Positions 476-24,068 of a stretch of DNA of 64,000 nt are shown here, in pieces. The position numbers and the translations under genes are program-made. A model generated the notes under the pieces. It had not been told where the DNA came from. It saw only the letters and a program-made list of their open reading frames with translations, and ran no database searches. This DNA is from Candidatus Altiarchaeota archaeon. Lineage in GTDB: Archaea; Altiarchaeota; Altiarchaeia; IMC4; SCGC-AAA252-I15. Each line of letters begins with the position of its first letter. Position 1 is the first letter of the stretch. The stretch lies in contig JAZDMS010000035.1 of NCBI GenBank assembly GCA_043800705.1, positions 2,579-66,578 on the forward strand, read 5' to 3'.

Positions 476-620
476 TTTTTTCACCTATCTTTGTTTTTTT
501 CTTGACTTTTATTTATCGTTCAAATTTTGATGCTGATAAAGTGCAGGAGACGCACACCGGATTCTGGCACGGGAATCCCGCACTTCATAGATAAACGCCA
601 CAGCCCTGGGCCGCGGGTGT

Positions 621-779: not shown

Positions 780-796
780 ATCCACCTCATTTTTCA

Positions 797-1048: not shown

Positions 1049-1162
1049 TTGCCAGGAAAGCCTTTAATATCCGTGGATGTCATCACTGACTTGTTCGTTT
1101 CTACGTCCTTAATCAAGGACCAGAATTCGATCTCGTCGGTTATATCCGTCTTCTTCGCCATC

Positions 1163-1468
1163 TTATTTCCCCCTGAGCTTCGACATCACGATGACCCCGA
1201 CTATCGCCCCTATGGCTGCCGCGACTACCGTTGCTGATGCCGGGTTCTTCTTCACTTCGCTCTCGATTCGTGCCTCGGCTTTGGACATGTCCTTCTTGAC
1301 CTTTGTCCTGACGTGCTTCGATAGTTTCACCCAGTCGGCCCCTGACATGCTGGCGGCCGTCCTGTAGTTGGCTATCACCTTGTCTTCGGCCTTTTGAAGC
1401 ACGGCCTTTATCTTTTTCTTTTGTTCTTCTGTCAAACTCTCCTTCTTCGCCTTCTTTTTAAAAGCCAT
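1163..1468 (-). CDS. DUF883/YqjD-ElaB-like tail-anchored protein
   Basis: Lys/Glu-rich helical body followed by a C-terminal anchor, VKKNPASATVVAAAIGAIVGVIVMSKLRGK. A shared leader motif lies upstream. Confidence 0.5.
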   Translation of the reverse strand: MAFKKKAKKESLTEEQKKKIKAVLQKAEDKVIANYRTAASMSGADWVKLSKHVRTKVKKDMSKAEARIESEVKKNPASATVVAAAIGAIVGVIVMSKLRGK

Positions 1469-1531
1469 AATCTCACCTATTTTTCCTCATTTGGATTCTG
1501 CCGGATCGTATCGATTAAACCAGCATTATAC

Positions 1532-2059
1532 CTATTTGCATGCGCCCTCAACGCATCCGTTCGGGCATCTGTACCTGAGGGACTTGCTCATATCGCCGTC
1601 ACAGTACGACTCCACTAACCAGTCTGCTCCGTCACAATGGTCAGTCATACTTGATATATCCCAGGTTGTCGTTCCCTTTACGTAAAAATGCCCATTATCT
1701 GAGTCTTTACATCCAGGTCCAGAAACCGAGTTCACGCCGTAGTAGCTGTTTGCAGAGTCTTCCAACACACCGGATTTCTCGTACATCGCCTGAGCGGCTT
1801 TCATCTGGGCGAACCTGTTATCCAGATAAGCCTGACTGACTCCTTGATAAGGCAGACTATCGCCTCGTGCGGGTGCAGGATCTGCCGCTATCTTGATTGT
1901 GTAGCCGGTGACGGGTGGATAGCCAGTCCACAGGACAATTCCCACAATCGCCACTATTCCTCCGATCACCAGGATGGCAAGCAAGGAAAAGACGACGAAT
2001 GCTTTAGCTAAGCCGTTCTCTTTTAGATTCTGCATGATTTTTTCATAGTTTGATTCCAT
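1532..2059 (-). CDS. membrane-anchored extracellular protein with one six-Cys module
   Basis: N-terminal TM segment (FVVFSLLAILVIGGIVAIVGIVLW). The block GDSLPYQGVSQAYLDNRFAQMKAAQAMYEKSGVLEDSANSYYGVN is conserved with 4962..5771. Then comes the module GPGCKDSDNGHFYVKGT...DHCDGADWLVESYCDG...YRCPNGCVEGACK. Confidence 0.7.
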   Translation of the reverse strand: MESNYEKIMQNLKENGLAKAFVVFSLLAILVIGGIVAIVGIVLWTGYPPVTGYTIKIAADPAPARGDSLPYQGVSQAYLDNRFAQMKAAQAMYEKSGVLEDSANSYYGVNSVSGPGCKDSDNGHFYVKGTTTWDISSMTDHCDGADWLVESYCDGDMSKSLRYRCPNGCVEGACK

Positions 2060-2080
2060 TGTTTCACCTCTTCTTTTCCC

Positions 2081-2755
2081 CTATTTGTACAGCCATCCGA
2101 AGATGCCTTTGCTTTCTTTTTCCCTTTGTGCCAGGCCTTGCAGCCTGTTTTGTTCGACGTCTAGTTCTTTGAGCTGTTCGTCGATGAATTGCCCGATTTC
2201 CTCGCTGGTGCCTTTTCGGAGTTCCTTCAATTGCGCTATCCGCGCCCTATTAGCCTTGACCTCCGGCTCTATCTCATTAGCGGCAGTATCGTCCCCCCCA
2301 AACAAAAACCTCTGAAACCAGCCTCTGTTGTTCATCCTTTCTTCTGCCCCTTGGGTTTTGTTGATGGAGTTGTTGAATTGCCGTGCGACCTCAGCCACCT
2401 CCTGGCCGATGCCTCTGTCCTCGGTCATATTCCTCAAAGCCAAAAGGGACATCACGCGCTCCCGCACGACATTCTGGTTTTTGAATTCCTTAGTCTTGTC
2501 CCTGTTGTTGGTTTCGTTATCAACTTTGTCTTTTTCTTCGGAGATTTTCTGCTGGAGTCTCTCTATGACCCGTAATCTAGCCTGGATGCTGGCATCGCTC
2601 GGATTGCCATTCTGCATGCTATTGTTTATCGCATTAATGGCCTGATTTTGGCCTTGGATGCCGTCTTTATTACCCTTGTCCGAGTTTTCGTTTGCTGCGG
2701 AGACAACAGTCACCAGCAAGGAGACTAGGGCCAACAAAACCAATATTTTTTTCAT
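2081..2755 (-). CDS. secreted coiled-coil protein, function unknown
   Basis: Signal peptide MKKILVLLALVSLLVTVVSA followed by Glu/Lys/Asn/Gln-rich helical sequence. Confidence 0.6.
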   Translation of the reverse strand: MKKILVLLALVSLLVTVVSAANENSDKGNKDGIQGQNQAINAINNSMQNGNPSDASIQARLRVIERLQQKISEEKDKVDNETNNRDKTKEFKNQNVVRERVMSLLALRNMTEDRGIGQEVAEVARQFNNSINKTQGAEERMNNRGWFQRFLFGGDDTAANEIEPEVKANRARIAQLKELRKGTSEEIGQFIDEQLKELDVEQNRLQGLAQREKESKGIFGWLYK

Positions 2756-2806
2756 CTTTTTCCCTTTTTTATTTCTGTATGCTTTTTATCCGCGATAAAA
2801 TCAAAA

Positions 2807-2837
2807 GGTGAGGGCGGGTTTTCGTGCGCCCTCCACC
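2807..2837 (-). terminator. hairpin plus T-run downstream of 2843..4582
   Basis: The stem GAGGGCG/CGCCCTC (extendable to GGTG../..CACC) is followed on the minus strand by TTTTGATTTT. Confidence 0.5.
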
Positions 2838-2842
2838 TAAAC

Positions 2843-4582
2843 TTATGCCTTAAGCTTTCTTTTCGCTTCCGCACTCATCAGACGGTTGTCCTGCGCCCAT
2901 ACCCCGTATCCTGCGATTAGACACAATAGCAGCATCAGGTTTCTGAAACCTGCCGCGTATAGGGCTTGCATGGATTGCTCAGAAGGTGACATAGTGTATA
3001 CGGCGTATCCTGCCAGCAATGACGCATCACCATCCCACTCTTGCTCTGCCAGCTGTTGCGGTTCCTGTGTCCTCATTTCTTGGACCGTAGTCAATGTAGT
3101 CGATGTAGTCAATGTAGTGCTTGCTGTAGTAGGCACTGTCGCTACAATCATCGGCCTAACCCTCATTGTCGAAGTCGTTGTGGGGGGTTCGGTCGTTGTC
3201 GGAGCAGTGCATTCTTCATCCACTAAGATACACCTATCTTGTAGACCACAGTACTTATACCCTGCATCAACTGCACATCCATGATTATCCAAAGTCGTGG
3301 TTGTCGGAGCCTCGATTGTTGTTGTGGTGGTAATAATGCGTTTATGTCCTCCGTTTCCGCCGGATGCTATGGTGGTTGTCGTTGTCGTCGTATCATCCGG
3401 ATTTGTGGTCGTTGTCGTGCCAAAATACACCCATATTTCTTTGCTCTGGTTCTCGTTACTCGGATCGGCTTCGTCGGTTACGTACCCGTACAGGCTGTAA
3501 TTGCCAAACAGGTTTAAGCCAAATGTGTCCCAAACGAGGGTATTTGTGCCGTTTACTGGGGGCAATAGATCTTCCACCCCGGGCGTCCCATTGTATGTAA
3601 ACCACAGCCTAAGCAGCGGGTTTGTCCCCTCTTGTACGCCCGCCGTTATGGTTATCGGGTCATCCTGCATAGCCGCCGACACATCGGTCGTGAACTTCGT
3701 TATATAAGGTGGCAGCGTCGTAGTCGTCGTTGTAGTAGGCGTTGGGGTTATTGGCCCTGTGACAGGATTGCCCTCTAAGCTAACCGCAGTCTGTGACAGC
3801 GCTCTGCCGTTCAGTACTGCGCCAGTTTGGATCGCAATATTCGTCATATCCAGGATATTTCCATTGAACGTAGAGTACGTTCCAAGTGTCGTTGTGTCAG
3901 CGACTCTCCAGAAAACATTCGCAGGTATGGCTCCACCGTTGAGTAATACCTTAATGCCGGAATCAACGTCACCAGCTGAGGCGATATTGAGAGTTCCTGG
4001 TATCTGGAATATCCATACATCAGTTGGGCCTCCATTGAGTGTGACATCCGTTGATATTGTCACGCCAGAAGTAAACGTATAAACACCCGGAGTGAGTGTC
4101 AGCCCGCCAAGCTCACCACTTCCAGCGTTGGTATCATCCATTGGACGTGCGCCGGCATCGGTATACGCGGTTCCCATGTCTAATACTGCGTTGTCGACAT
4201 AGGTCTTGTCAGTTGAGCTACCGGCATAACAGGTTATATCGCTGCTACCCGTATATGCCGCATCAACACCGTATATTGTCCCAGATATTTCTGAACAAAA
4301 TATATTGTCCATCGCGGCAGCACTAATCGGACTAGAGCCGATGTCCCCGGTTATAGCAGAACCATGGCTATCGGTGTTCGTGATTCCAGCTTTTGTTAGA
4401 ATCGCGAAATTGCCGGCTGTTCCAAGACCCACAGGTGCCGGCGATGCGTACGCAGACACTTCACATGCCATCACTGAAAAAAACATGAGGCATACTAAAC
4501 TAATTGTTGCTATTTTCATTTGTTCCGTTATTTGTTCCATTATTGTCCACCATTTATATGTTTTTTTACACTTTTTTTCCAT
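2843..4582 (-). CDS. DUF3494 (ice-binding-like) beta-solenoid surface protein with poly-Thr stalks and a C-terminal TM anchor
   Basis: LGTAGNFAILTKAGITNT, ITGDIGSSP, LTLTPGVYTF, VTLNGGPTDVWIFQIPGTLNIA, ANVFWRV and GRALSQTAVSLEGNPVT match the DUF3494 pattern. Several TTTTT runs follow. The C-terminus carries a hydrophobic segment, LMLLLCLIAGYGVWA. Confidence 0.8.
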   Translation of the reverse strand: MEKKCKKTYKWWTIMEQITEQMKIATISLVCLMFFSVMACEVSAYASPAPVGLGTAGNFAILTKAGITNTDSHGSAITGDIGSSPISAAAMDNIFCSEISGTIYGVDAAYTGSSDITCYAGSSTDKTYVDNAVLDMGTAYTDAGARPMDDTNAGSGELGGLTLTPGVYTFTSGVTISTDVTLNGGPTDVWIFQIPGTLNIASAGDVDSGIKVLLNGGAIPANVFWRVADTTTLGTYSTFNGNILDMTNIAIQTGAVLNGRALSQTAVSLEGNPVTGPITPTPTTTTTTTLPPYITKFTTDVSAAMQDDPITITAGVQEGTNPLLRLWFTYNGTPGVEDLLPPVNGTNTLVWDTFGLNLFGNYSLYGYVTDEADPSNENQSKEIWVYFGTTTTTNPDDTTTTTTTIASGGNGGHKRIITTTTTIEAPTTTTLDNHGCAVDAGYKYCGLQDRCILVDEECTAPTTTEPPTTTSTMRVRPMIVATVPTTASTTLTTSTTLTTVQEMRTQEPQQLAEQEWDGDASLLAGYAVYTMSPSEQSMQALYAAGFRNLMLLLCLIAGYGVWAQDNRLMSAEAKRKLKA

Positions 4583-4877
4583 CTATCTTTACCCTTTTTT
4601 CCCTCATTTAGACTCTGCGTGATTGTATCGGATAACCACGTCTCTGTGGCCACCCATTATGATAATAAATTGGGGGTCAAAGCCCCCGTATAATCGGTTA
4701 AGTCCTCATGATGTTCTTGCCTGCCGGGCGGTTCTTGACCATTCCTTTCCCGCAGGGTCGTCCGCCCGTCTTCGCTACGGTTTTTGCCCGGTTCTTGGCT
4801 GCAGTCATCCTGCCGCCCCTGCTTATTTTTGCCATTTTTATTCACCCTTTAATCCTTTTTTTTTTTTAAAAAAATTT

Positions 4878-4910
4878 GAGCTACGGGCCTTTTTAGAGGC
4901 CCGTATGCTC
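4878..4910 (-). terminator. conserved hairpin ACGGGCC-loop-GGCCCGT downstream of 4962..5771
   Basis: 7-bp GC stem at 4883-4889/4898-4904, followed on the minus strand by ATTTTTTT. The loop CTAAAAA matches the hairpin at 6122-6143. Confidence 0.5.
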
Positions 4911-4961
4911 TTGGAGGTATTGATCCTCAATAGAGGATTTCCTCATGTTTCTCTAACTTCC

Positions 4962-5771
4962 CTATTTGCATGCTCCATCGGCGCATCCGTTCGGGCATTT
5001 ATACTGGATAAGTTTGCCAGTATCGCCGCCACAGTACCACTCCCTTAGCCAGACCGCTCCGTCACAGTTGTCCGCTACAGACCATCCGTTCCAGTTCGCT
5101 GTCCCTTTTATGTAGAAGTTTCCGTGATCGGAACTTATGCATCCAGGTCCTGCAGATTCATTCACGCCGTAGTAGCTGTTTGCGGAGTCTTCCAACACAC
5201 CGGATGATTCATACATCGCCTGTGTGGCCTTCATCGATGCGAACCTGCTGTCCAGATAGGTTTGGCTAACCCCCTGATAGGGTAGGCTTTGTCCTTGCGT
5301 TGAGGTCGGTCCCCCAGGGTATGTCCCAGGATCGCCTGTGCCAAGCACCTCTTTTGGGTACCCGTAACCATAGGCGTAACCGTAATGATTTGGGTAGTAA
5401 CCTGTTGCCACTGCTGCCCCGGATATCCAAGATGACGCGTAACCTGTTATCCCAGACCAGAAACTGCTCGATTGCCGGCATTCTCCGTCCATACAGCCGT
5501 TAGGGCATGTGTAACGGAACTGCTTTGCCGCTGCGCCGTCGCAATACCACTCTATCAGTCTCACGACCGGCGCACCACCGCCGTTATTCACGCAATTGTC
5601 AGTGTGGTATATGTAGTTGTTGTTTGCGTCCACTTCCAACACAGAACCCTTGGCATAGATGCTTCCGTAACCGGATGTGTAGCATCCTGGTCCTGTTTGC
5701 GCTATCGCAAAAGTCGCCAAAGACAACAGCATCAGAGTCGCCAAACCGTTCTTTATAACATTTTTTTCCAT
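4962..5771 (-). CDS. secreted protein with two six-Cys modules
   Basis: Signal peptide MEKNVIKNGLATLMLLSLATFAIAQ. Module 1 is GPGCYTSGYGSIYAKGS...DNCVNNGG...IEWYCDG...YTCPNGCMDGEC. Module 2 is GPGCISSDHGNFYIKGT...DNCDGAVWLREWYCGG...YKCPNGCADGACK. Confidence 0.75.
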   Translation of the reverse strand: MEKNVIKNGLATLMLLSLATFAIAQTGPGCYTSGYGSIYAKGSVLEVDANNNYIYHTDNCVNNGGGAPVVRLIEWYCDGAAAKQFRYTCPNGCMDGECRQSSSFWSGITGYASSWISGAAVATGYYPNHYGYAYGYGYPKEVLGTGDPGTYPGGPTSTQGQSLPYQGVSQTYLDSRFASMKATQAMYESSGVLEDSANSYYGVNESAGPGCISSDHGNFYIKGTANWNGWSVADNCDGAVWLREWYCGGDTGKLIQYKCPNGCADGACK

Positions 5772-5788
5772 CGTTTCACCTCATTTTT

Positions 5789-6061
5789 TTATAAAATAGA
5801 TTCTGCTATTTTTTGGTCGTTTTTCAAGGTCACCCTATCGTCTTTTTGATGATCTTTCAAAGTTCCCCTATCGTCTACTTGCTGGCCGTTCAAAGCCGCC
5901 CTATCATCCTTTTGATGGCTGTCCATTATCACTGTCTCGATCTTTTCATCGTTTTTCAATGTTGACAATGCGCTTTTTTGACGGCTTTTCAACGTCTCCC
6001 GAGCGTTTTTTTGACGGCTTTTCATGGCCGACATAGCCTTTGTTTCATCTTTTTTCTCCAT
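5789..6061 (-). CDS. 90-aa hydrophilic protein made of 7 x 11-residue repeats
   Basis: KSRQKNARETL / KSRQKSALSTL / KNDEKIETVIM / DSHQKDDRAAL / NGQQVDDRGTL / KDHQKDDRVTL / KNDQKIAESIL. AAAAAATGAGGTGAGGAT precedes the ATG. Confidence 0.5.
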   Translation of the reverse strand: MEKKDETKAMSAMKSRQKNARETLKSRQKSALSTLKNDEKIETVIMDSHQKDDRAALNGQQVDDRGTLKDHQKDDRVTLKNDQKIAESIL

Positions 6062-6116
6062 ATCCTCACCTCATTTTTTCCACTCCTAGATTATGTCCGT
6101 TTTTCTTCTTTTCCGC

Positions 6117-6149
6117 GAGTTATGGGCCTTTTTAGGGGCCCATAAGCTC
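6117..6149 (-). terminator. conserved hairpin ATGGGCC-loop-GGCCCAT downstream of 6162..7709
   Basis: 7-bp stem at 6122-6128/6137-6143 with the same CTAAAAA loop (minus strand) as 4883-4904. No clear T-run follows, so terminator function is uncertain. Confidence 0.4.
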
Positions 6150-6161
6150 CGGGTTTGTCTT

Positions 6162-7709
6162 TTATCCTACATTGAACTCGCCTACACCATAACCGGTCTG
6201 TATGTTTTTCTCTTGTCCTGGTTGGACTGTAGTCGGGTTGTAGTAGAGGATAACAGAGCTATCGCTTAGGATGCTTTGTTGTCCGTCTATGCTGTAGCCC
6301 CATGCGGTGTCCTTGCTTTGCTTCCAGTCTGCGACGACCAGCTTGTCGGGGGAGGTCATGCCGTCCTTGCCGCCTATGAATCCTATGGCGACGAGGGTCG
6401 GTTGTTCACCCTGGTTGTACGCCTTCCAGTACCCTGCGGAAAGCTGGCTTTGGGAGAATTCATTCTCCGTTGTTATAAGGCCTTTACCTGGTATGAAGAT
6501 CGGCGCTCCGTCGTTCAATCCAACCTTTGTGTCGATAAGCAATCTCGCGCCAATACGGTGGCCGGATACGTCATCGTTCGCCAGCTTGACCTTATTCAAT
6601 ACTGTCGTGTTCTGGATGACGCTCCACTCTTCAACCACGCGTATATTCGAAGGAAGCACCCATTCGCTTACGATTGAGGAACCGCCTATCTTCGGCTTCA
6701 CGGTATTGTATTTATCCATTTGAATGCCGTCTCTTGGGTCGCCAGATGTGGTGTAGAATCGGTCATCAACGTTTATGGTCAGGAAGGTGCCATCCCATGG
6801 GTTGGGGTAGCCATATGTCAGCTTCTCCCAGTTGTTGCCAAATAGTCCGCCAATGGAGAATACGCCTATGTTTTGGTGGTCTTCCACTTCAACGCTGATA
6901 TGGCTGTACCGTTGAAACAGGGGTGCGTTGCTGTCTGGGCCTGTGCCTGTTGTAAACGCCCACACGTAGTCGCTTCTCATCGCATTGCCTGCGAGGTCAT
7001 CGGCCCCGGAGGATATTTTGGCAGTATATCTGGTGTTAGGCTTCAGGTCGTTGTTTGGCGTAAAAATCCCAGTTCTGCCGACATTTTTCACGGTTCCTGC
7101 TATTTGAGTCCCGTCAGGTCCTGTCACTGTGAATGCTCCAGTTACCGTCTGCTCGGACATAGCCTCGCTAAAAGCTGCGAAGATGTCTTTGTTAAGCGGA
7201 ACATTCATCGCATAGTTCTCAGGTTCCGTATAGCTCACCGTCGGCGCGGTCGTATCTGATATATCCTTGACTGCGTATCCGGTTATGGGCGGCGAGATGT
7301 TCCAAAGGACTATCCCCCCCATCCCCAGTATTGCAACTAAACCCAGGAGGGCAAGCGCAAAGAGGGCGAATCCGTTTTGTTTATCCATTTTTTCGGTCAT
7401 TTCAGCCCTCTCATCTGCAATTTTTTGGTCGTTCCTCAACGTCACCCTGGCGTTTTTATGGTCGTTTCTCTGAGTGACCCTGGCGTTTTTCTGATCGTTT
7501 CTCATAGTCACTATATCGTTATTCTGGTCGTTTTTCATAGCCGCCGAGTCGTTTTTCTGATCGTTGTCCAAGGACACCCTATCGTCTTTCTGATCGTTGC
7601 CCAAAGTCGCCGATTCGTTTTTCTGATCGTTGTCCAAGGACACCCTCTCGTTCTTTTCGTCGTTTTTCAAAGACGCTCTGTCGTTTTTTTCATCGCATGT
7701 TTCCATCAT
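6162..7709 (-). CDS. membrane protein: cytoplasmic 9 x 11-residue repeat head, TM segment, SbsA/Big_5-like Ig domain, unknown C-terminal domain
   Basis: N-terminus KNDEKNERVSL/DNDQKNESATL/GNDQKDDRVSL and similar, encoded by 33-bp DNA repeats at about 7400-7700. TM segment FALFALALLGLVAILGMGGIVLW. TAPTVSYTEPENYAMNVPLNKDIFAAFSEAMS...TRYTAKISSGADDLAGN resembles the SbsA Ig-like domain. Confidence 0.75.
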   Translation of the reverse strand: MMETCDEKNDRASLKNDEKNERVSLDNDQKNESATLGNDQKDDRVSLDNDQKNDSAAMKNDQNNDIVTMRNDQKNARVTQRNDHKNARVTLRNDQKIADERAEMTEKMDKQNGFALFALALLGLVAILGMGGIVLWNISPPITGYAVKDISDTTAPTVSYTEPENYAMNVPLNKDIFAAFSEAMSEQTVTGAFTVTGPDGTQIAGTVKNVGRTGIFTPNNDLKPNTRYTAKISSGADDLAGNAMRSDYVWAFTTGTGPDSNAPLFQRYSHISVEVEDHQNIGVFSIGGLFGNNWEKLTYGYPNPWDGTFLTINVDDRFYTTSGDPRDGIQMDKYNTVKPKIGGSSIVSEWVLPSNIRVVEEWSVIQNTTVLNKVKLANDDVSGHRIGARLLIDTKVGLNDGAPIFIPGKGLITTENEFSQSQLSAGYWKAYNQGEQPTLVAIGFIGGKDGMTSPDKLVVADWKQSKDTAWGYSIDGQQSILSDSSVILYYNPTTVQPGQEKNIQTGYGVGEFNVG

Positions 7710-7818
7710 TTCACCTCACTTTTTTCCCCTCATTCGGATTCTGCCCATATGCAGCTGCTGATTCCATGCACCACAAGTACGCATCTACACCGCCTGTGTC
7801 GGATACCTGCCGGGCTGA

Positions 7819-7870
7819 TGTAGAGTAGAATGGAGCGTAGTGTAGAACGGGAAAGCGGAGTAGAACGGAT
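7819..7870. repeat. three direct copies of GTAGAAYGG
   Basis: aGTAGAATGGagcgtagtGTAGAACGGgaaagcggaGTAGAACGG, in the intergenic region upstream of 6162..7709. Confidence 0.5.
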
Positions 7871-8256
7871 CTGCCATCAAGGTCAATGGATAGGACAGAT
7901 GCGCGCGGTTTCAGATTTATCAACCGATAAAAACTTTTTAAAAGAATTAGGAGAAAGTCTGAGACGCTAATTGCGGGTTTCGTAATGAAGCGAACGTCGC
8001 TCCTTTGATATTTTATAGTTTCAGCATTTACCAATAAACCTTCGAGGTTATATCCGAGTGAAGCTTAATGAAGGCATGGGTTACAAAAAGGTTACCCGAA
8101 GTATGGTTTCAGCAGGATTGTTTCACCTGATTTCCCCTGCCCATTTTAGGTGTTTAATAAGGGAAGGGGATTAATAAAGGATGATATATAAACGGATAGG
8201 GTGGTTTGATATAATGAGAGGTTATATTCGTTGTTATCTGTTATGGGTGAGATTTA

Positions 8257-9972
8257 ATGACTTCAAAAGCTGTTAAGCAAAAGTATATTGGGATTGAAAA
8301 GTGCCGCACAGGAATTCGCGGGCTGGATGAGATCACGGAAGGCGGCATACCACGGGGGCGTCCGACGCTCATTTGCGGCGGCGCCGGCTGCGGCAAGACC
8401 TTGATGGCGATGGAGTTCATCGTGCGCGGTGCGCGGGACCTCGGGGAACCCGGGGTTTTCATGGCGTTTGAGGAGACCGAAAAGGATTTGGGGAGCAACA
8501 TCTCCTCCCTCGGCTTCGACCTGCCGGCGTTGGTTGCAGCCAAGAAGGTCGCGGTCGACTACGTTTTCATCGAGCGGAAGGAGATAGAGGAGACAGGCGA
8601 ATACGATCTGGAGGGACTGTTCGTGCGCCTCAACAGCATGATCGACTCCGTCGGGGCTAAAAGGGTCGTGCTTGACGGTCTGGAGGCTCTATTCGCAGGA
8701 CTGCCCAGCGAAGGCATCCTTCGCTCAGAGCTGAGGCGGATGTTCCGCTGGCTCAAGGAGAAGGGCATCACGGCAGTCATAACCGCCGAGCAAGGTGAGA
8801 ATACCCTGACGCGCCACGGTCTCGAGGAGTACGTCAGCGATTGTGTCATATACCTTGACAATAGGTTACAAAACCAGGTTGCGACCAGGAGGGTACGCAT
8901 AATAAAGTATCGCGGCAGCAGTCACGGCACCAACGAATACCCTGCATTGATTGACGAGCAGGGCTTCAGCGTCCTGCCGATAAATACTCTCGGTCTATCC
9001 CACCGGGTGAGCTTGAAACGGATTCCATCTGGGATAGCAAGGCTTGACAATATGCTGTCCGACAAGGGATACTTCAAAGGCTCTAGCATCCTCATCTCGG
9101 GAACCGCAGGGTCGGGGAAGACGAGCGTAGCTATGGCTTACGTAGACAGCGCATGCAAGCGCGGAGAAAAGTGCCTTTACTGGTCGTCCGAGGAGTCGCC
9201 CGAACAGATCGTGAGGAACATGGCCTCAATCGGTTTAGACCTGCAAAAGCACATCGACGCTGGACATCTAATAATTCGCTCCATCCGGCCGACGTTATAT
9301 GGTTTGGAATCCCATCTGGTGAACATTCACAAGATGGTCTCTGAATATAAGCCCGACTCGGTGATTATGGATCCTGTCACCAACCTCAACGAAGTCGGAG
9401 ACGAAGCCGAAATCAAGTCGATGCTGACGAGGGTGATAGACTTCCTGAAATCCCGTGGAATCACAACCATCTTCACCAGCCTAACCGGAATGAAGGTGAA
9501 TGTGGAGCAGTCCGAGGTTGGAGTAAGTTCGCTGATGGACACGTGGATACTCCTTAGGATGGTTGAGTCGGCAAGCGAGCGAAATCGCATAATATTCGTG
9601 CTCAAGAGCCGCGGAATGGCCCACTCTAACCAGATGCGCGAGTTCATACTCAGCGACCATGGAATAGACCTTGTAGACGTATACGAAGGGTCAGGCGGCG
9701 TATTCACCGGCACTGCAAGACTCAACCTGGAGGCCAAGGAAAGGATGGAAGCGCTGGCGTCCGAGCTGAAAGCCGAAGCCCACAAGCGCGAGGTTGAGAT
9801 AGAATGCAAGGGACTGCGGGTGCAAATCGAGGCATTGCAGACGAAGCTTTCGAACGTCAACGAGGAGGGGGCAACGAACGTCAAACAGGAGAGGGACCGG
9901 ACAGACGAAGCCAAGAAAAGCCACACTGACATGGGGCGGGCGCGAGGAAGGGACAAGCAGAAAGATAACTGA
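8257..9972 (+). CDS. kaiC: circadian-clock-type ATPase KaiC with a C-terminal coiled-coil extension
   Basis: Two RecA-like halves with Walker A motifs GGAGCGKT and GTAGSGKT. Catalytic EE pairs occur in FEETEKD and [24 protein letters not shown]...[16 protein letters not shown] aligns with the S. elongatus phospho-site region ISTITDTIILL. A Glu/Lys-rich heptad-like tail of about 85 aa follows. Confidence 0.92.
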
Positions 9973-9973
9973 A

Positions 9974-10273
9974 ATGCCAAAAAGAAAAAAGAAATGGGAT
10001 CTGCGGCTTTATGTCGCAGGGCAGACGCCGCACTCGCTCAAGGCGTTCGCGAACCTCAAGAAAATATGCGACGAACACCTTCCTGGGCAATACACCCTTG
10101 TGATCATCGACCTTCTGAAGGAGCCGAAGCTCGCAGCAGGCGACCAAATAATCGCAGTTCCGACCCTCGTGAGGAAACTCCCCCAACCCATAAAGAAGAT
10201 CATAGGCGACCTCTCCGACACCGAGCGTGTCCTCGTCGGTCTCGACCTGCGGCCAATGACAAACACACTATAA
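9974..10273 (+). CDS. kaiB: KaiB
   Basis: [63 protein letters not shown] is a typical thioredoxin-like KaiB fold sequence. It starts 1 nt after the kaiC stop. Confidence 0.9.
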
Positions 10274-10284
10274 AATGAGAAAAC

Positions 10285-10625
10285 ATGAAAAGTAAAGCAA
10301 AGCATGATAAAACCACCAAACTGATAGAGAAGACGTTTACCGAAGGCGACAAATCCTATTACGTCCTCAGACTATACGTTGCCGGGCTCACTCCAAACTC
10401 CAGCCACGCAATCGATTCGATCAGAAAAATCTGCAATGAATACCTTAAAGGCAGATATGACCTGCAGATAATCGACATCTACAAGCACCCTACACTAGCC
10501 AAGGGGAGCAGATAATCGCCGCACCGACCCTGATAAAGAAACTGCCGCTACCCCTGCGCAGACTCATCGGGAACATGGCGGATGAAAAGAAAACCCTCAT
10601 AGGCCTAGACCTGCGATTCAGATGA
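10285..10625 (+). pseudogene. kaiB: second kaiB interrupted by a 1-nt frameshift in a G run
   Basis: Frame 1 reads YYVLRLYVAGLTPNSSHAIDSIRKICNEYLKGRYDLQIIDIYKHPTLAKGSR*. The shifted frame continues IIAAPTLIKKLPLPLRRLIGNMADEKKTLIGLDLRFR*. One extra G in aagGGGGag would restore LAKGEQIIAAPTL. Confidence 0.75.
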
Positions 10626-10679
10626 GAGTAGCGGATAGTTCTTATTAATCCGTATGGCTAAAACTCGTGCTATCCCTAA

Positions 10680-13079
10680 ATGAAAGACAAAACCGATAGC
10701 AAGCTGCAAAAAGAGAACGCCGATTTGCGCGCCAGACTGGGTGAAGCTGAAGAAACGCTGCGCGCCATCCGCGAAGGGGAAGTGGATGCGATTATAGTCT
10801 CAGGAAACAAGGGAAACCGGGTCTTCTCGCTGTCCGAGTCGGAGAACCTCCATCGCCTGATGGTCGAGACCATGAATGAGGTCGGCATCGCCACGACGCC
10901 GGATGGCACGATACTTTTCTGCAACAATCGGGCCACTGAACTCCTCGCACAGCCGCAGAACAAGCTCTTAGGCCGCAATCTGGCCGAATTTATCGCTTCC
11001 CAGGACATTCATCACTTCAAGGACATACTCAAAATCGCATTGAAGGAGACTACGCACAAAAGGATTCTATTCCAGTCCAGGAATGGCAACTCCATCCCCC
11101 TGGAAATATGGGCAAGCCACCTCAAAAGCCAAGGAAATCCCATAATAAGCCTCGTCGCGACAGACCTGTCCCAATTAGAGGCGGTGCAAAACCTAGTAAA
11201 ACAACTGAGGGAGAGCGAGGAGAAGTTTCGCGGAATCGTAGAGACTGCTAGGGAGGGCATAATAACCGCTACTCTAGGCGGTAATTTCACCTTCGTTAAT
11301 CAGATGATGGCAGACATGCTCGGCTATCCAGTCGATGAAATCCTGAACAAAACAAGTTTGGATTTCAGCTTCAAAGACTTGAAAAAGCCAGTTCTGGACT
11401 TAAGAAACGAGCTAAAAACCAAAAAGATATTGAGTGGCGAGTTCAAGTTCCGCCGCAAAGACGGCTCAGTGCTGTGGTCAAGCTATAACGCTTCGCCGAT
11501 TTTCGACAGCAGTGGACGACACGTAGCCAATCTTGCCATGCATACGGACATCACCGAACGCAAGAAGGTCGAAGCCAAGATAAAACAGGCCGAGGAGGAC
11601 CTTCGGCAGACCCGCGATTACCTGGAGAACCTCCTGAACTACGCGAACGCACCGATCATCGTATGGGATAAAATGCAGAGGATATTCAGGTTCAACAAGG
11701 CTTTCGAACACCTTACAGGATACACAGCCCATGACGTGATAGGGAAAAGGCTGGATATTCTCTTCCCGAAAGACAACCGAAAGGAGTCATTGGATAAGAT
11801 CAAGCAGACAGCTGTGGGGGATTACTGGGAATCCGTCGAGATTCCGATACTCCAAAAGGACGGAGAAGTAAGGATAGTGCTATGGAACTCGGCGAACATC
11901 TACGACAAGGACGGCAAGACTATACTATCGACGATAGCGCAGGGACAGGATATCACCGCACGGAAGAATGCGGAGTTGGAGCGCGAACACTTCATCAGCA
12001 AGGTCCAGCAGCTGTCGGCGGAGGCCCAGATGAAGGCGAACGAACTCGAAGCGATTTTCAAGTCAATGGCTGAGCCGCTGATCATCTATGACGTGTCCGG
12101 AAAGGCGGTAAAACACAACCAAGCAATGTCAAAGATGCTGGGCTTCGACCCAGCAGGGCTGACAATCCGGGGGATTATGGGAAAAATTTCCCTCATGACT
12201 GAGGAGGGCGCTCCCTTCAATGTCGAGGAAACCCCCGAAGGCCGCGCGTTAAAAGGCGAGACCGTGCATGACGTGAAGCTGATATTCAAATACGAGACTG
12301 GGAGGGAGAAGATTGTGCTATCGAACTCAGCCCCCATAATCACCAAGGGGAAGGTGACTGGCGTGATAGTCGTATGGCATGACATAACCGAGACGGAAAA
12401 GGTCAAGAAGCTGAGGGACAGGATGCTGAGGGACCTGTCGCACCAGCTGAAAACCCCGCTGTCGATAATCGAGATGGGACTTGAACGTCTTTCAAAAGAA
12501 TCCAGCGACAGCGGCGGACACCACCATCAGAACATGGACATGATCCTTAGGAACACACGACAAACGAGGGAGCTCGTAACGAAGATACTGAAGCTCAGCA
12601 GGCTCGAGTCCGGAAGTGAGAAGGTGAAGAGAGCGAGATTCGACCTGGCTAAGGAGATGTTAGGGGCGTTGGCTGATTTGATGCATCTGGCAGAGGAGAA
12701 ACGGCTGGTACTGACGTATCATGGGCCCGCCAACCTAGAAGTGAATTCAGATAGAGATAAGGTGATGGGGTCAATCACCAACCTAGCGGAAAACGCCATA
12801 AAATACACCGAGACCGGGGATATAGACGTAAAGCTTGACGAATTCGCGGATAACGTCGTTGTCGAAGTCTTAGACACAGGCGTCGGCCTCAGCGAAGAGG
12901 ACATCGAAAATGTGTTCAACGCTTTCTACAAGGTCGATCCTAGCGTGCCAGGTGCGGGAGTAGGACTGAACATAGTGGCTGAGAACATGAAGCTCCTGGG
13001 CGGAAGCATCAAGGCAGAGTCCCAAGGCCATGGCAAAGGCAGTGTTTTTAAGTTGACAATACCAAAGGGAACCAAATGA
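10680..13079 (+). CDS. multi-PAS sensor histidine kinase
   Basis: N-terminal coiled coil (LRARLGEAEETLRAIREGEVDAIIV) and several PAS/PAC blocks (e.g. DITERKKVE, DITARKNAE). H-box LSHQLKTPLS. HATPase_c motifs NLAENAIKYT, DTGVGL and GAGVGLNIV. Confidence 0.9.
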   Translation: MKDKTDSKLQKENADLRARLGEAEETLRAIREGEVDAIIVSGNKGNRVFSLSESENLHRLMVETMNEVGIATTPDGTILFCNNRATELLAQPQNKLLGRNLAEFIASQDIHHFKDILKIALKETTHKRILFQSRNGNSIPLEIWASHLKSQGNPIISLVATDLSQLEAVQNLVKQLRESEEKFRGIVETAREGIITATLGGNFTFVNQMMADMLGYPVDEILNKTSLDFSFKDLKKPVLDLRNELKTKKILSGEFKFRRKDGSVLWSSYNASPIFDSSGRHVANLAMHTDITERKKVEAKIKQAEEDLRQTRDYLENLLNYANAPIIVWDKMQRIFRFNKAFEHLTGYTAHDVIGKRLDILFPKDNRKESLDKIKQTAVGDYWESVEIPILQKDGEVRIVLWNSANIYDKDGKTILSTIAQGQDITARKNAELEREHFISKVQQLSAEAQMKANELEAIFKSMAEPLIIYDVSGKAVKHNQAMSKMLGFDPAGLTIRGIMGKISLMTEEGAPFNVEETPEGRALKGETVHDVKLIFKYETGREKIVLSNSAPIITKGKVTGVIVVWHDITETEKVKKLRDRMLRDLSHQLKTPLSIIEMGLERLSKESSDSGGHHHQNMDMILRNTRQTRELVTKILKLSRLESGSEKVKRARFDLAKEMLGALADLMHLAEEKRLVLTYHGPANLEVNSDRDKVMGSITNLAENAIKYTETGDIDVKLDEFADNVVVEVLDTGVGLSEEDIENVFNAFYKVDPSVPGAGVGLNIVAENMKLLGGSIKAESQGHGKGSVFKLTIPKGTK

Positions 13080-13453
13080 ACGTTAAGCCAAAGATTCTGG
13101 TGGTCGAGGACAACCTGGACATACAGTCGATATACTCCCAGATACTTCCAGGAAAATACGACATCACACAGGTCACCAACACGAAGGACGCCTGGAAGGC
13201 GATCTCAGAGACAGAATACGACCTCATGATACTCGATATCATACTGCCCAAGGGCGCTCAGGGAGACAGGTTCTACATCCAGTTAAGCCAGAACCCGGAA
13301 TTCTCCCAGATACCAGTGCTCTTTGTAACGGTCATAGACGACCACATGGAGGCGAAGACGCTCGGGAACATCAACCGGGCAGAGTGGCTGACTAAACCGT
13401 TCACGGAAGAGGCGCTTTTGGCAAAGATAAAGACAGTGCTCTCAAAAAAGTAG
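13076..13453 (+). CDS. single-domain response regulator (CheY-like receiver)
   Basis: KILVVEDNLDI, DLMILDIILP and TKPF motifs. Its ATGA start overlaps the kinase stop. Confidence 0.85.
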   Translation: MNVKPKILVVEDNLDIQSIYSQILPGKYDITQVTNTKDAWKAISETEYDLMILDIILPKGAQGDRFYIQLSQNPEFSQIPVLFVTVIDDHMEAKTLGNINRAEWLTKPFTEEALLAKIKTVLSKK

Positions 13454-14183
13454 GCGGCTGCGACAATCATCAATCCCCCCTACTTTTGTCAGAATATATG
13501 CAAAAAACAAAAACCGGCAGGTTTTTATACCTGTATGCGTATATAATCACGGAGTAACTATTGAATAAAAACTTCGAAGAAAAAACAAGCGGATATGCCC
13601 TAAAAGAGAGGCATGCTATTTTTAATAACGGTTCATCCTTTACCGAGCCATCTAACATAAACGGCGTTAATGGATCCACCATAACTTTCCCGTTTTTTAT
13701 TGAAACACATAAAACTTTACCGAAGGTTCTGTTTACGAAAGGCGGAGTTGCCGGGACTGAATTGGCTGGCCGAACAAGGAGTGATGTGAGGGCTGCCATG
13801 GATCCGGGGATGGTTAATGCGACTGTTGCGCGTGAATGCGATGCTTTTTCTAGATTTGGCGAATCCGACAACTCCCCTCACGATCATTCACCGTTGGGTT
13901 TCATATCGGAATTTTGTCATTGGAAGAGGTGAAACTATGCGAAATACTGCAGAGAAACAAAGGAGAAAGGGATATGGGGGCAATGTGAATGAAGGCGTCA
14001 CAGCAGCAAAGTTCGCCCTATCGAATGAAGTTAAGAGGCTGATGCCGTCGACCAGATTATACTGGTGTAGGGAGCCAACGTGGTGTTACCGTTGAAAGTG
14101 CAGCTTAAACAAAAAAGCCAAAAAATGCAGCGCTTGCATCGAGATGAAAGGTGAAGGGATGCGTGTATGCGGTGGTGGGAAAG

Positions 14184-14315
14184 ATGAATGGCGTGAACAA
14201 TACGGGAGATCTTCCGGCAGACGCAGTTGCCGTCTGTCTGGTTTGCGGCAGCCCGTCTGCCGAGTCGGAACACTGCACCTTCTGCAACAAATACCTGCGG
14301 GGGGTTGGGGCCTGA
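14184..14315 (+). CDS. possible 43-aa zinc-ribbon peptide
   Basis: Hand translation: MNGVNNTGDLPADAVAVCLVCGSPSAESEHCTFCNKYLRGVGA (CxxC...CxxC). A GGTGG lies about 8 nt upstream. Weak support. Confidence 0.25.
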   Translation: MNGVNNTGDLPADAVAVCLVCGSPSAESEHCTFCNKYLRGVGA

Positions 14316-14316
14316 G

Positions 14317-14574
14317 ATGAAAGGAGACGCTCAAACCGGCATGTCCGGCAAAAAACAACCCCTGGATGCGAAAGTCTTTGATGACAAAACATCAGTCCGA
14401 AAGGCAAAATCAAGCCTGAAGAGGGTTTTAAAAGACGTCATAAGGATGGCAGAAACCGAAAGCAGGATCGAGGCTGTTAGGATACGGAATCTGATCCTCG
14501 CCGATCTGGCAGTAATCGAGCCGGCATTATCCGTGAATAAAGGAGATGGCGAAATGATGCCATACGATAATTAA
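14317..14574 (+). CDS. possible 85-aa hypothetical protein
   Basis: Internal ATG of ORF 14227..14574, 1 nt after the zinc-ribbon stop: MKGDAQTGMSGKKQPLDAKVFDDKTSVRKAKSSLKRVL... No recognisable domain. Confidence 0.3.
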   Translation: MKGDAQTGMSGKKQPLDAKVFDDKTSVRKAKSSLKRVLKDVIRMAETESRIEAVRIRNLILADLAVIEPALSVNKGDGEMMPYDN

Positions 14575-14613
14575 TTGAATGCGAATAAAGGTGCGAAGTT
14601 TAAAGGTGGAAAA

Positions 14614-14943
14614 ATGGACGGATATGAACAACTACCCTCAGAGGGAATAGGAACATTGCAAGAGACGGTAAAGATGCTAGGGAAACAGTGGGCGATACCC
14701 ATACTTGTGGAGATACAGCAATCCCCCCGGGAGAAGGCCGGTTTTAGGGAATTACAGAACAGGCTGGATAATATCAGCTCAAAGGTGCTTTCTGAGAGGC
14801 TTAAGGAGATGGTGGAACACGACATTCTCAAGCGAAGAGTGAACGCCAACCTGTCCCCAATTAGGGTCAATTACCGGCTGACAAAGAAAGGCAATGTCGC
14901 ATGTCATGTCCTCAACAGGCTAATTGAATGCTCCATGGCCTAG
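14614..14943 (+). CDS. HxlR-family winged-helix transcriptional regulator
   Basis: LGKQWAIPILVEI...FRELQNRLDNISSKVLSERLKEMVEHDILKRRV...YRLTKKG. The start is placed at ATG 14614, which sits behind GGTGGAAAA. Confidence 0.8.
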   Translation: MDGYEQLPSEGIGTLQETVKMLGKQWAIPILVEIQQSPREKAGFRELQNRLDNISSKVLSERLKEMVEHDILKRRVNANLSPIRVNYRLTKKGNVACHVLNRLIECSMA

Positions 14944-15049
14944 ACGATGAGGTAACCAATCCGTTACCCTCGCCTATATACTCTCAAGCGCAGATGTGTG
15001 TTGAGAGCTTTCCCATATCCTTCTGATTCGAAAAAGGCTAGGCTATATC

Positions 15050-15925
15050 ATGGTTCTGGAGTCTATTGTCGTGCCGGAAAGATGGTTGCATCATCCTATG
15101 CGGATGTTAGTGATAGGCCTAGTGTACTCCCTTCTTGGGATAATGCTTGGAATCCTGTTATTCGGAAGATACGCGAGCGTCGCAGGCATATTCCTCACCA
15201 CGATCCCGCTTGTAGTGATATGGTACCATGCGATCTACGATGAAGAGAGGAAGTCCATGGAAAAAAGCACGGAACACATGCACCTTGCTCAGTACAAACA
15301 TATCCTCTGGTTCTTTATCTTTCTCTTCGTAGGAATGGTATTCGCCTATAGCCTCTGGTTCACATTCATGCCGCTTGCTCTGGTCACGGTGTCAACAGCG
15401 ATCCAAATAGATACGATTTACTCCATACAGAACCAATTCGCAGCCACTGGTGCATCGACCTTGGATACCAACGATCTGGTGGTCATTCTTTTAAACAATT
15501 TGCGTGTCCTCCTTTTTTGCATAATATTCTCATTCGTCTATGGCGCCGGGGCGATATTCATCCTCAGTTGGAACGCTTCTGTGATAGGGGTCGCAATAGG
15601 CAATATGGGGAGGGAAGGTTTGGCGCGATTAGGCCAACTGGGCCAAAGCCCATCAATCATGACCTATTTCAGCGTCCTTCCGGTGAGCATCAGCTACCTG
15701 ATACACGGCCTGCCAGAGGTTGTAAGCTACTTCTTCGGGATCCTTGCAGGAGGCATAATATCCGAGGCAGTAGTCTGCCACCATTATAGAGAACCTGAGT
15801 TCTGGCGGGTAATCAAGGATTCATCCTCACTGATACTTGTATCTTTAATGATTTTATTGCTGGCAGCGCTGATAGAGGTCTACGTCACTCCCGTCTTGTT
15901 CGACCCGCTAAAGGCCATAACCTAG
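15050..15925 (+). CDS. SpoIIM/DUF95-like integral membrane protein
   Basis: Multi-TM protein. LLNNLRVLLFCIIFSFVYGAGAIFILSWNASVIGVAIG resembles the SpoIIM/DUF95 core. Confidence 0.5.
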   Translation: MVLESIVVPERWLHHPMRMLVIGLVYSLLGIMLGILLFGRYASVAGIFLTTIPLVVIWYHAIYDEERKSMEKSTEHMHLAQYKHILWFFIFLFVGMVFAYSLWFTFMPLALVTVSTAIQIDTIYSIQNQFAATGASTLDTNDLVVILLNNLRVLLFCIIFSFVYGAGAIFILSWNASVIGVAIGNMGREGLARLGQLGQSPSIMTYFSVLPVSISYLIHGLPEVVSYFFGILAGGIISEAVVCHHYREPEFWRVIKDSSSLILVSLMILLLAALIEVYVTPVLFDPLKAIT

Positions 15926-15983
15926 GGACTATGACCATCGGGGGCATTGGTGCATAAAAAGGCCGCCGGCGAATCATAGCCTT

Positions 15984-16808
15984 ATGAGAAAGGCGGCCGT
16001 CGTTGTCGCGGCGGTGTTGGCACTGTTGGCGGCGTATTCCCTCATCGAGCCGTACCTCATCCTGGTGAACCGGGTCGATTTCGCGGACGATAGGTTGCCG
16101 GAATCGTTCGACGGCAAGAGGATCGTGTTCGTATCGGACATCCACTGCGGGCCGTTGTTCTCGATTGGCAGGACCAGGGAGCTCGTCGATAGCATAGACG
16201 GGCTCGAACCGGACATGATACTCCTTGGGGGGGATTACATCTCCAGCGACGACATCTTCAACACTGGAGACCGGATCGGGCCTTGCCTCGGGGAGTTCAG
16301 CCGCCTGAAAGCCCCCCTCGGGGCGTATGCGGTCCTCGGAAACCATGAGAACTGGGCGGGGAGGGACAGGGCTATGAATTCGTTGGAGTCGGCGAGTATC
16401 AGGGTCATTGACAATGACGGTGTTTGGGCCTCATCCGGGAACGGCAGCATCAGGATAGCGGGAGTCGCCGACTTATGGACGCAGCGGCAGGACTTCAATG
16501 CCGCATTGGACGGAGCCAAAGCGAGTGACTACACCATACTCCTGTCACACAACCCGGACATCGCAGAATACCTCAGATCAGACAGCATTGCATTGGTCCT
16601 CTCAGGCCACACCCACGGAGGACAGGTGACGTTATTCGGCCTATGGACGCCCTATCTGCCTTCGAATGCGGGACAGAAGTACGCAGGAGGATTCGTGAAG
16701 ACGAACCACACGACCGTCTTCGTGACGAAAGGCGTAGGCACGACCGGTCTTCCGATGAGGTTCTTCGCAAGGCCGGAGATCGTCGTCCTCACACTGCACC
16801 GGGAGTGA
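15984..16808 (+). CDS. metallophosphoesterase (YkuE-like), N-terminal TM
   Basis: VFVSDIHCG, GGDY, GNHE, SHNP and SGHTHGGQ motifs. Confidence 0.85.
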   Translation: MRKAAVVVAAVLALLAAYSLIEPYLILVNRVDFADDRLPESFDGKRIVFVSDIHCGPLFSIGRTRELVDSIDGLEPDMILLGGDYISSDDIFNTGDRIGPCLGEFSRLKAPLGAYAVLGNHENWAGRDRAMNSLESASIRVIDNDGVWASSGNGSIRIAGVADLWTQRQDFNAALDGAKASDYTILLSHNPDIAEYLRSDSIALVLSGHTHGGQVTLFGLWTPYLPSNAGQKYAGGFVKTNHTTVFVTKGVGTTGLPMRFFARPEIVVLTLHRE

Positions 16809-24059: not shown

Positions 24060-24068
24060 ATCAGATCA

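Follow-up and report, generated by a model that had tools for sequence, protein, structure and literature searches.

Results

Gene content and layout of the kai cluster

We analysed a 64-kb stretch of DNA from a Candidatus Altiarchaeota archaeon (contig JAZDMS010000035.1), hereafter the window, in whose coordinates all positions are given and within which all statements on missing genes hold. Our subject is a kai cluster of five consecutive plus-strand open reading frames (ORFs) at 8257-13453, which encode a KaiC, a KaiB, a second KaiB, a multi-PAS histidine kinase and a CheY-like receiver (Table 1). An earlier sequence-only reading had proposed these genes as a KaiA-less hourglass timer. Its coordinates were exact; its second kaiB indeed has KaiB sequence but is not an intact gene, being frameshifted in a run of four G residues. 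The kaiC, kaiB and PAS histidine kinase genes are co-oriented and closely spaced in the manner of an operon. Only 1 nt separates kaiC from kaiB and 11 nt the first kaiB from the second, 54 nt lie between the restored stop of the second kaiB (10625) and the kinase start (10680), and the kinase stop and the receiver start overlap as ATGA. The AT-rich stretch 5' of kaiC contains two TATA-like boxes, GATATATAAAC (8183-8193) and TTGATATAATG (~8207-8217), and a Shine-Dalgarno-like GGTGA lies at 8247-8251. Scans for sigma-70 promoters and intrinsic terminators gave nothing above shuffled sequences, as expected for an archaeon, and tRNA-Arg was the only match in an Rfam scan.

The absence of a kaiA-like ORF, claimed in the sequence-only reading, was borne out. 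A KaiA probe, which scored 594 bits against KaiA in the PDB, gave a best E value of 0.35 in a tblastn search of the 64-kb window, and among the small ORFs nearby there is neither a Pfam match nor a KaiA domain. KaiA is known from cyanobacteria only (PMC5520375).

Table 1 Coordinates of the kai cluster and of its functional features
Feature	Position	Strand	Description and basis
Putative expression signals 5' of kaiC	8180-8256	+	Read from sequence; inference only
kaiC	8257-9972	+	571 aa; ORF list, Pfam, NCBIfam, PDB search
Ser424-Ser425, predicted autophosphorylation pair	9526-9531	+	Alignment
C-terminal helix, KaiC residues 485-567	9709-9957	+	AlphaFold2; predicted coiled-coil dodecamerisation/allosteric tail
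kaiB type A	9974-10273	+	99 aa; R. sphaeroides KaiB orthologue
kaiB type B, interrupted	10285-10625	+	5' part 10285-10515 (76 aa, then TAA); 3' part 10506-10625, -1 frame
Sensor histidine kinase	10680-13079	+	799 aa; coiled coil + PAS module, three further PAS, HisKA, HATPase_c
Kinase N-terminal module, specific to Kai operons	10692-11225	+	Residues 5-182; LRARLGEAEETLRAIREGEVDAIIV, then PAS fold
CheY-like receiver, single-domain	13076-13453	+	125 aa

Family assignment and functional residues of KaiC

The KaiC profile PF06745 matched the protein twice (357 bits, Pfam), with CI at about residues 16-242 and CII at about 253-480, followed by a C-terminal helix. KaiC passed the NCBIfam model NF006799 with 688 bits (cut-off 408), and stayed below the cyanobacterial equivalog TIGR02655 (311.5 bits vs cut-off 546) and below the cut-offs of the KaiC_arch_3, KaiC_arch_4 and thermo_KaiC models. 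When all PDB chains were searched with phmmer, Rhodobacter (Cereibacter) sphaeroides KaiC (8dba, 8fwi and 8db3) came out on top with 597-611 bits over aligned residues 11-567 including the tail, 8dba being the best match (611 bits). KaiC of Synechococcus elongatus and Thermosynechococcus scored about 290-300 bits, and archaeal single-domain homologues such as PH0186 scored 57-121 bits. An AlphaFold2 model of the KaiC monomer, built on 63 homologues and with a mean predicted local distance difference test score (pLDDT) of 75, consists of two RecA-like domains and a single helix (485-567). Its first 17 Foldseek matches were all R. sphaeroides KaiC chains, led by 8fwj, 8fwi and 8dba over 521-554 columns with the helix included. 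KaiC shares 49% identity with R. sphaeroides KaiC and 34% with S. elongatus KaiC. In a neighbour-joining tree rooted on the latter (sequence identical to PDB 1U9I), it lies inside the clade bearing the C-terminal extension, where R. sphaeroides KaiC is basal, instead of among the archaeal KaiC-like ATPases, the placement that the sequence-only reading had named as contrary to its proposal. By these sequence comparisons, KaiC is of the KaiC2 or R. sphaeroides type and is not an archaeal KaiC-like ATPase.

Both ATPase halves of KaiC are intact, as had been read from the DNA, with Walker A residues K47/T48 and K288/T289, catalytic Glu pairs E72/E73 in CI and E312/E313 in CII, and arginine fingers R219 and R452 all found. 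The Ser-Ser phosphosite had also been located exactly; it corresponds to S424/S425, which align with S413/S414 of R. sphaeroides KaiC and S431/T432 of S. elongatus KaiC. A Ser-Ser pair occurs in 59-61 of the 63 members of the extension clade and is a KaiC2 signature (PMC5520375, PMC10076222), the kaiC2 subgroup being described by an extension of ~50 aa together with Ser-Ser sites (PMC10076222). The counterparts of the Rhodobacter allosteric network in KaiC are W430, L432, F447 (for Tyr), L449, M460 (for Val) and R461. Moreover, KaiC has E379 at the site of the inhibitory R385 of S. elongatus and of E369 in R. sphaeroides, and a 2026 preprint ties a Glu at the R385 position to high constitutive kinase activity (bioRxiv 10.64898/2026.04.01.715469).

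The C-terminal tail of KaiC

Block-mean pLDDT values of the C-terminal helix range from ~72 to 90 over residues 490-560, and E, K, R and D make up 43% of the tail. The ~85 residues from TGxARLxQEA to the terminal motif, whose family consensus LARARKAD reads MGRARGRD here, show no gap across the 63 homologues, and the tail also aligns without gaps to the helix of 8dba and 8fwi. The sequence-only reading had described a charged C-terminal extension of about 85 aa. This length fits the helix, but the true extension is shorter: the end of S. elongatus KaiC lies opposite about residue 511, ~60 aa before the end, and the Rhodobacter delta-coil cut (E490) corresponds to A501 here, from which ~70 aa remain, so that the extension proper comprises ~60-70 aa.

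Across the family, strongly hydrophobic columns are conserved at 513, 520, 524, 527, 531, 534, 538 and 541 with a spacing of 3-4, and the conserved a/d core positions in KaiC here are V513, L520, I524, L527, L531 and V534 (nt 9793-9861). The hydrophobicity spectrum of the family peaks at a period of 3.5, a result equalled by 34 of 20000 column permutations; the heptad-like character claimed for the tail is thus significant at the family level but not in the single sequence (see Discussion). Helical by prediction, free of gaps, heptad-periodic across the family and aligned by Foldseek to chains of the Rhodobacter dodecamer, the tail is predicted to be a coiled-coil element for dodecamerisation and allosteric control. 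The other contrary outcome that the sequence-only reading had named at the sequence level, a tail without a predicted coiled coil, thus did not arise.

In R. sphaeroides KaiC, the tails form a 12-helix bundle joining two hexamers (PMC10076222). The sequence-only reading had taken the coil as the feature that makes this KaiC independent of KaiA, which the published data bear out only in part: delta-coil KaiC carries out nucleotide exchange and autophosphorylation at wild-type rates, and KaiA-independence is credited to an exposed A loop (PMC10076222). What is lost on coil removal is the fast ADP-driven dephosphorylation, and the oligomer is destabilised, so the coil is needed for rapid dephosphorylation and dodecamer stability (PMC10076222).

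An intact type-A kaiB and a frameshifted type-B kaiB

The first KaiB (KaiB-A) matched PF07689 with 92 bits (cut-off 27) over positions 1-81 of the 82 in the profile, and reached 107.5 bits with NF006798, slightly below the cut-off of 110. Its best PDB match is R. sphaeroides KaiB (8fwj_M, 106 bits), and Legionella KaiB (4kun) scored 53 bits. The 5' ORF of the second gene (kaiB-B) matched the Pfam KaiB profile at positions 1-45 only. This ORF ends in a TAA after 76 codons, and the other 39 codons (EQIIAAPTLIKKLPLPLRRLIGNMADEKKTLIGLDLRFR) lie in a different frame from 10506. The -1 frameshift maps to the G4 run at 10503-10506, where one added G restores a KaiB of 113 aa that matches KaiB proteins of solved structure with 85-91 bits. 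We ruled out programmed -1 frameshifting, as the site GCC AAG GGG AGC is not a slippery heptamer of the form X XXY YYZ. A scan of metagenome contigs for the exact pattern of the frameshift site gave no match, and protein-guided scans of genome and metagenome collections gave no relative above 67% identity. Loss of KaiB-B need not disable the system, because in R. sphaeroides one type-A KaiB is sufficient and a type-B gene is missing.

The sensor histidine kinase and the receiver

Pfam matches in the kinase comprise four PAS stretches, HisKA and HATPase_c, and the receiver matches Response_reg. The HisKA domain contains H588 (nt 12441-12443), the N, G1 and G2 boxes are all there, and the receiver has the complete residue set D12, D54, T85 and K107. 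Inspection of the kinase PAS domains by eye revealed no LOV (light-oxygen-voltage) or haem signatures. The N-terminal module of the kinase begins with a coiled coil (LRxRLxEAEETLRAIRxGEVDAxxV) and continues into a PAS fold. Residues 5-182 are colinear in the gene after kaiB in 62 of 66 related loci, and the transmitter part varies. The module is also found in the HWE kinase of R. sphaeroides (36% identity over 91 aa, E 2e-14) and in a Pararhizobium kinase (33% identity over 182 aa).

Related loci and the two KaiB types

One genome per GTDB species was scanned for related loci, and ORFs were compared by phmmer. The scan gave 80 loci (L001-L080) with KaiC identities of 55-67%. Their bacterial hosts include Verrucomicrobiota, Planctomycetota, Acidobacteriota, Chromatiaceae, Desulfobacterota, WOR-3, Spirochaetota, NC10 and others, and four of the 80 loci come from archaeal metagenome-assembled genomes (MAGs; Thermoplasmatales, Bathyarchaeia, Methanotrichaceae and Methanosarcinaceae). 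Altiarchaeota are not represented among the 160 related loci retrieved. The conservation of the operon, which the sequence-only reading had left to be checked, is evident: KaiC, KaiB-A, KaiB-B and kinase in this order are the norm. The first KaiB scores best with the intact KaiB of the window (type A) and the second with the repaired kaiB-B product (type B), and this A-then-B order is present in 52 of the 76 KaiB-bearing loci. Type-B KaiBs form an almost clean clade (58 type-B sequences and 4 labelled A) and are marked by DIYQQP and PLPLRRFIG motifs and an N-terminal extension of ~20 aa.

The type-B gene is therefore present in most KaiC2 operons, is not part of the R. sphaeroides operon, the only one with biochemical work behind it, and is broken here. 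No paper addressing this paralogue was found in our literature search. Type-B KaiB may be a further regulator that has escaped recognition, such as an adaptor linking KaiC to the kinase N-terminal module. At the family level, the prevalence of the two-KaiB architecture as the common form of the KaiC2 operon is new, as is the conserved kinase N-terminal module, and together the two offer testable leads on how KaiBC is coupled to signalling.

Host, genomic setting and origin

Proteins identical to KaiC, the cysteinyl-tRNA synthetase CysRS and the SpoIIM-like protein of the window are present at NCBI on a 96,306-nt contig of a 'Candidatus Altiarchaeota archaeon' MAG, where KaiC is already annotated as KaiC. 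The next-best matches of CysRS (29293-30684; 54-70%) come from independently binned Altiarchaeota and Altiarchaeales MAGs, followed by other archaea. Closer to the cluster, the SpoIIM-like gene (15050-15925), 1.6 kb 3' of the receiver, has best matches of 45-59% in Altiarchaeota, plus relatives of 82-89%. The 82% SpoIIM orthologue lies on contig L084 (GC content 0.39), where directly upstream of it stands a homologue of the Cys-rich secreted ORFs that lie 5' of the kai cluster in the window (~1532-2044 and 4962-5771, minus strand) and where there are no kai genes. Both flanks are therefore Altiarchaeota-like, and the cluster is set in Altiarchaeota-type DNA and is missing at the matching place in the relative. 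Also consistent with an archaeal host is a pyruvoyl-dependent arginine decarboxylase gene (45121-45726, minus strand) that adjoins an agmatinase gene (45839-46711, minus strand), the pair making up an archaeal-type polyamine route.

The GC content is ~0.49 at 1-15950 and, with 15984-52000 as the stretch compared, ~0.58 for most of the window beyond. The step is sharp and falls within the 58 nt that separate the SpoIIM-like gene from a metallophosphoesterase gene (15984-16808). We ruled out this step as the boundary of a bacterial/archaeal chimera, since genes on its low-GC side are Altiarchaeota-like. At third codon positions (GC3), the kai genes have 0.65-0.71, neighbouring genes of the island 0.46-0.62 and core genes 0.72-0.81. 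No direct or inverted repeats bracketing the cluster were found, and no mobile-element boundaries could be defined.

In the distance tree, bacterial sequences surround KaiC and its 80% relative, which comes from a contig of only 2252 nt, and other archaeal KaiC2 proteins stand at three other places. The nearest named relatives are bacterial (63-70% identity). Given this tree position, the intermediate GC3 and the L084 contig without kai genes, acquisition from bacteria is favoured, and not a very recent one; the cluster was thus likely acquired laterally, as far as a distance tree can tell. The sequence-only reading had suggested both an archaeal host and lateral acquisition, and the Altiarchaeota-like flanks and the KaiC tree position support both.

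The segment around the cluster has several other features. The Cys-rich ORFs share a paralogous 300-nt block (1531-1830 and 4961-5260, 74% identity), with a homologue at L084:1604-2161. Tandem repeats of 33 nt at 642-769, 5792-5952 and 7404-7696 code for the 11-aa units ('NDQKNxxxTLx') that head the products of three minus-strand genes, among them a gene for a Big_5-domain protein (6162-7709) and a 90-aa ORF (5789-6061), and these repeat-headed genes resemble a local surface-protein family. A near-identical 33-nt palindrome (GAGCTACGGGCCTTTTTAGAGGCCCGTATGCTC) at 4878-4910 and 6117-6149 lies 3' of two minus-strand genes and may be a terminator or regulatory hairpin. A 579-aa protein with an ice-binding-like domain (DUF3494, PF11999; 186 bits) is encoded at 2843-4582 (minus strand). 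Downstream, the 1.1 kb from the receiver to an HxlR-family regulator (13454-14575; regulator 14575-14943) holds only ORFs without a Pfam match. In the high-GC part, a gene for a CopA-type copper P-type ATPase (21873-24059, minus strand) adjoins one for a 630-aa protein (24069-25961, minus strand) with an HMA domain and a weak cupredoxin (nitrosocyanin-like) match. Opposite-strand ORFs of ~600 aa overlap almost fully there at 41893-43749 (plus)/41959-43767 (minus) and at 21873-24059 (minus)/22263-24125 (plus), and since the minus-strand ORF of the second pair is CopA, 22263-24125 is a shadow ORF.

Discussion

Proposed function of the cluster

We consider that the cluster probably encodes a KaiA-independent KaiBC phospho-switch of the KaiC2/R. 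sphaeroides type, wired to a two-component pathway and residing in an Altiarchaeota host, most likely after transfer from bacteria. This reading is carried by the gene content, the family membership of KaiC, the catalytic and phosphosite residues, the tail, the synteny and the host affiliation of the flanks. From homology with R. sphaeroides KaiBC, we infer the oligomeric state, the kinetics, KaiB binding, the link to the kinase and physiological timing. The hourglass- or switch-type reading offered from the sequence likewise finds support in family membership, the timer function itself being drawn from homology.

In the mechanism we propose, KaiC hexamers would pair tail-to-tail through their C-terminal helices, and a permanently exposed A loop would allow autophosphorylation on S425 and S424 at high ATP without KaiA. 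A falling ATP/ADP ratio would then favour dephosphorylation through the coil-coupled allosteric network and KaiB-A bound to CI; indeed, R. sphaeroides KaiB binds CI and speeds the reset, with the ATP/ADP ratio as the external cue (PMC10076222). The phosphorylation state would thus follow the energy charge with a delay, as an hourglass and not as a self-sustained clock. The PAS kinase, probably co-transcribed, could bring a redox or small-molecule signal in, or could read the state of KaiBC out to the receiver. Its N-terminal module suggests itself as the part that would couple, in one direction or the other, to a phosphorelay ending on the CheY-like receiver.

Several points weigh against this interpretation. 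All function is transferred from a protein of 49% identity. In the tail, a crude a/d heptad test on the single sequence was not significant (1310 of 20000 shuffles reached the observed contrast), and G538 and N541 occupy core positions where the family prefers hydrophobic residues, which may give this KaiC a weaker distal coil than the family average. The frameshift in kaiB-B may reflect decay of the cluster or a plain sequencing error. Related loci do not keep a separate receiver as a fifth gene. The direction of transfer is suggested by a neighbour-joining tree only. Altiarchaeota are non-phototrophic and typically live in anoxic or subsurface settings, and no exposure to day-night cycles, or use of them, is known for these archaea; a timing role is therefore speculative.

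Alternative explanations

The frameshift raises the question of whether the cluster is laterally acquired cargo, decaying or inactive, in a variable low-GC segment, the lesion in kaiB-B being the first to become visible. The setting is in keeping with this, as the 16-kb segment is of atypical composition and rich in repeated surface-protein genes, a close relative has no cluster at the matching position and no other Altiarchaeota KaiC2 is among the best matches. Still, apart from KaiB-B, all products of the cluster are full-length and have no catalytic residue missing, and R. sphaeroides functions with type-A KaiB alone. A change of one base in a homopolymer, as in the G run here, is also a common kind of assembly error. 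We therefore regard decay as unlikely. Bacterial kai DNA misjoined to, or binned with, an archaeal contig would account for the bacterial nearest named relatives of KaiC and for the sharp GC step near 15950, and the source is a MAG, judged here from its assembly. However, the step lies away from the ends of the kai cluster, the SpoIIM-like gene with Altiarchaeota best matches lies on its low-GC side, and the Cys-rich ORFs upstream have a homologue beside SpoIIM in the relative. The kai genes are intermediate and not foreign in GC3, and no repeat prone to misjoining brackets the cluster, all of which makes an artefact very unlikely.

It is also conceivable that these proteins regulate stress responses or metabolism without time-keeping, as has been reported for KaiBC of Legionella pneumophila, or that they serve, at the opposite extreme, as a self-sustained circadian oscillator; we think both together quite unlikely. 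KaiC2 homologues have been tied to the stress response in Legionella (PMC5520375) and to adaptive growth under cycles in Rhodopseudomonas palustris (PMC4794148), and the host here is a non-phototroph, yet KaiB scores far higher with R. sphaeroides KaiB (106 bits) than with that of Legionella (53 bits). Besides, a stress regulator would differ from the phospho-switch favoured here in physiology and not in molecular mechanism. Self-sustained oscillation is improbable without KaiA, and an ATP/ADP cue from outside is required by the system of Rhodobacter (PMC10076222).

Known and new aspects

The family to which the cluster belongs is described, structurally characterised and widespread, and archaeal KaiB2/KaiC2 pairs have been reported before (PMC4794148, PMC5520375). 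KaiB has been reported in only four archaeal genera, each time with KaiC2 (Schmelling et al., PMC5520375), the operon type kaiC-kaiB-PAS/kinase has already been described for R. sphaeroides and R. palustris (PMC4794148), and among the papers we searched none connects Altiarchaeota with a Kai system. What is new here is the Altiarchaeota host and the broken type-B kaiB. A stronger claim is that an altiarchaeote runs a working KaiBC hourglass of bacterial descent, which would turn energy charge, diel or pulsed-substrate cues into a delayed two-component output and would be the first functional KaiB timer in Archaea; taken jointly with a role of type-B KaiB as an extra regulator, this is doubtful. 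If the system is active, the range of the Rhodobacter-type hourglass extends to an archaeal lineage that branches deeply and lives without light. This would favour viewing such systems as timers or switches of energy charge and not as clocks that depend on light, and as spread between domains by lateral transfer. By itself, the window adds one more, partly damaged, example of the family.

Comparison with known systems

The archaeal KaiC-like ATPases (PH0186, PH0284, SSO2452 and ArlH/FlaH) share the KaiC fold of the RecA superfamily with the protein described here but have one domain of ~230-260 aa and lack the phosphosite, the tail and a KaiB partner. With KaiABC of S. elongatus PCC 7942, the system has in common homologous KaiC and KaiB proteins, the CI/CII architecture and the position of the phosphosite. 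In contrast to S. elongatus, it has no KaiA in the window, a Ser-Ser instead of a Ser-Thr pair and ~60 aa of extra C-terminal helix, and the SasA, CikA and RpaA output is missing, so that autonomous oscillation is not expected. R. palustris (Ma et al. 2016, PMC4794148), likened here by description, also has a KaiA-less kaiC-kaiB-PAS/histidine kinase operon. Its KaiC2-type protein is an autokinase with raised ATPase activity, and its role is tied to nitrogen fixation and growth in dependence on light, for which Altiarchaeota offer no obvious parallel.

The widespread KaiC2 loci have the same gene order, the two KaiB types and the kinase module, with KaiC identities of 55-80% to that of the window; they differ in that type-B kaiB is frameshifted here and a separate receiver follows the kinase. 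The two-KaiB form is already annotated on plasmid p3 of Pararhizobium qamdonense (RefSeq). The closest characterised system is the KaiBC hourglass of R. sphaeroides (8DBA, 8FWI, 8FWJ and 8DB3; Pitsawong et al. 2023, PMC10076222). The operon of strain KD131 (L081, plasmid pRSKD131A) consists of kaiC, one kaiB and a gene for a 478-aa HWE kinase without an adjacent receiver, whereas the Altiarchaeota cluster has a type-B kaiB remnant, a 799-aa four-PAS HisKA/HATPase_c kinase and a translationally coupled receiver, and the hosts are a phototrophic alphaproteobacterium and an archaeon, respectively. Shared by both are a two-domain KaiC with a Ser-Ser pair and no KaiA, a C-terminal helix of equal length aligned without gaps, the allosteric residues and the Glu at the R385 position, as well as an orthologous KaiB gene directly 3' of kaiC followed by a kinase gene with the common N-terminal module.

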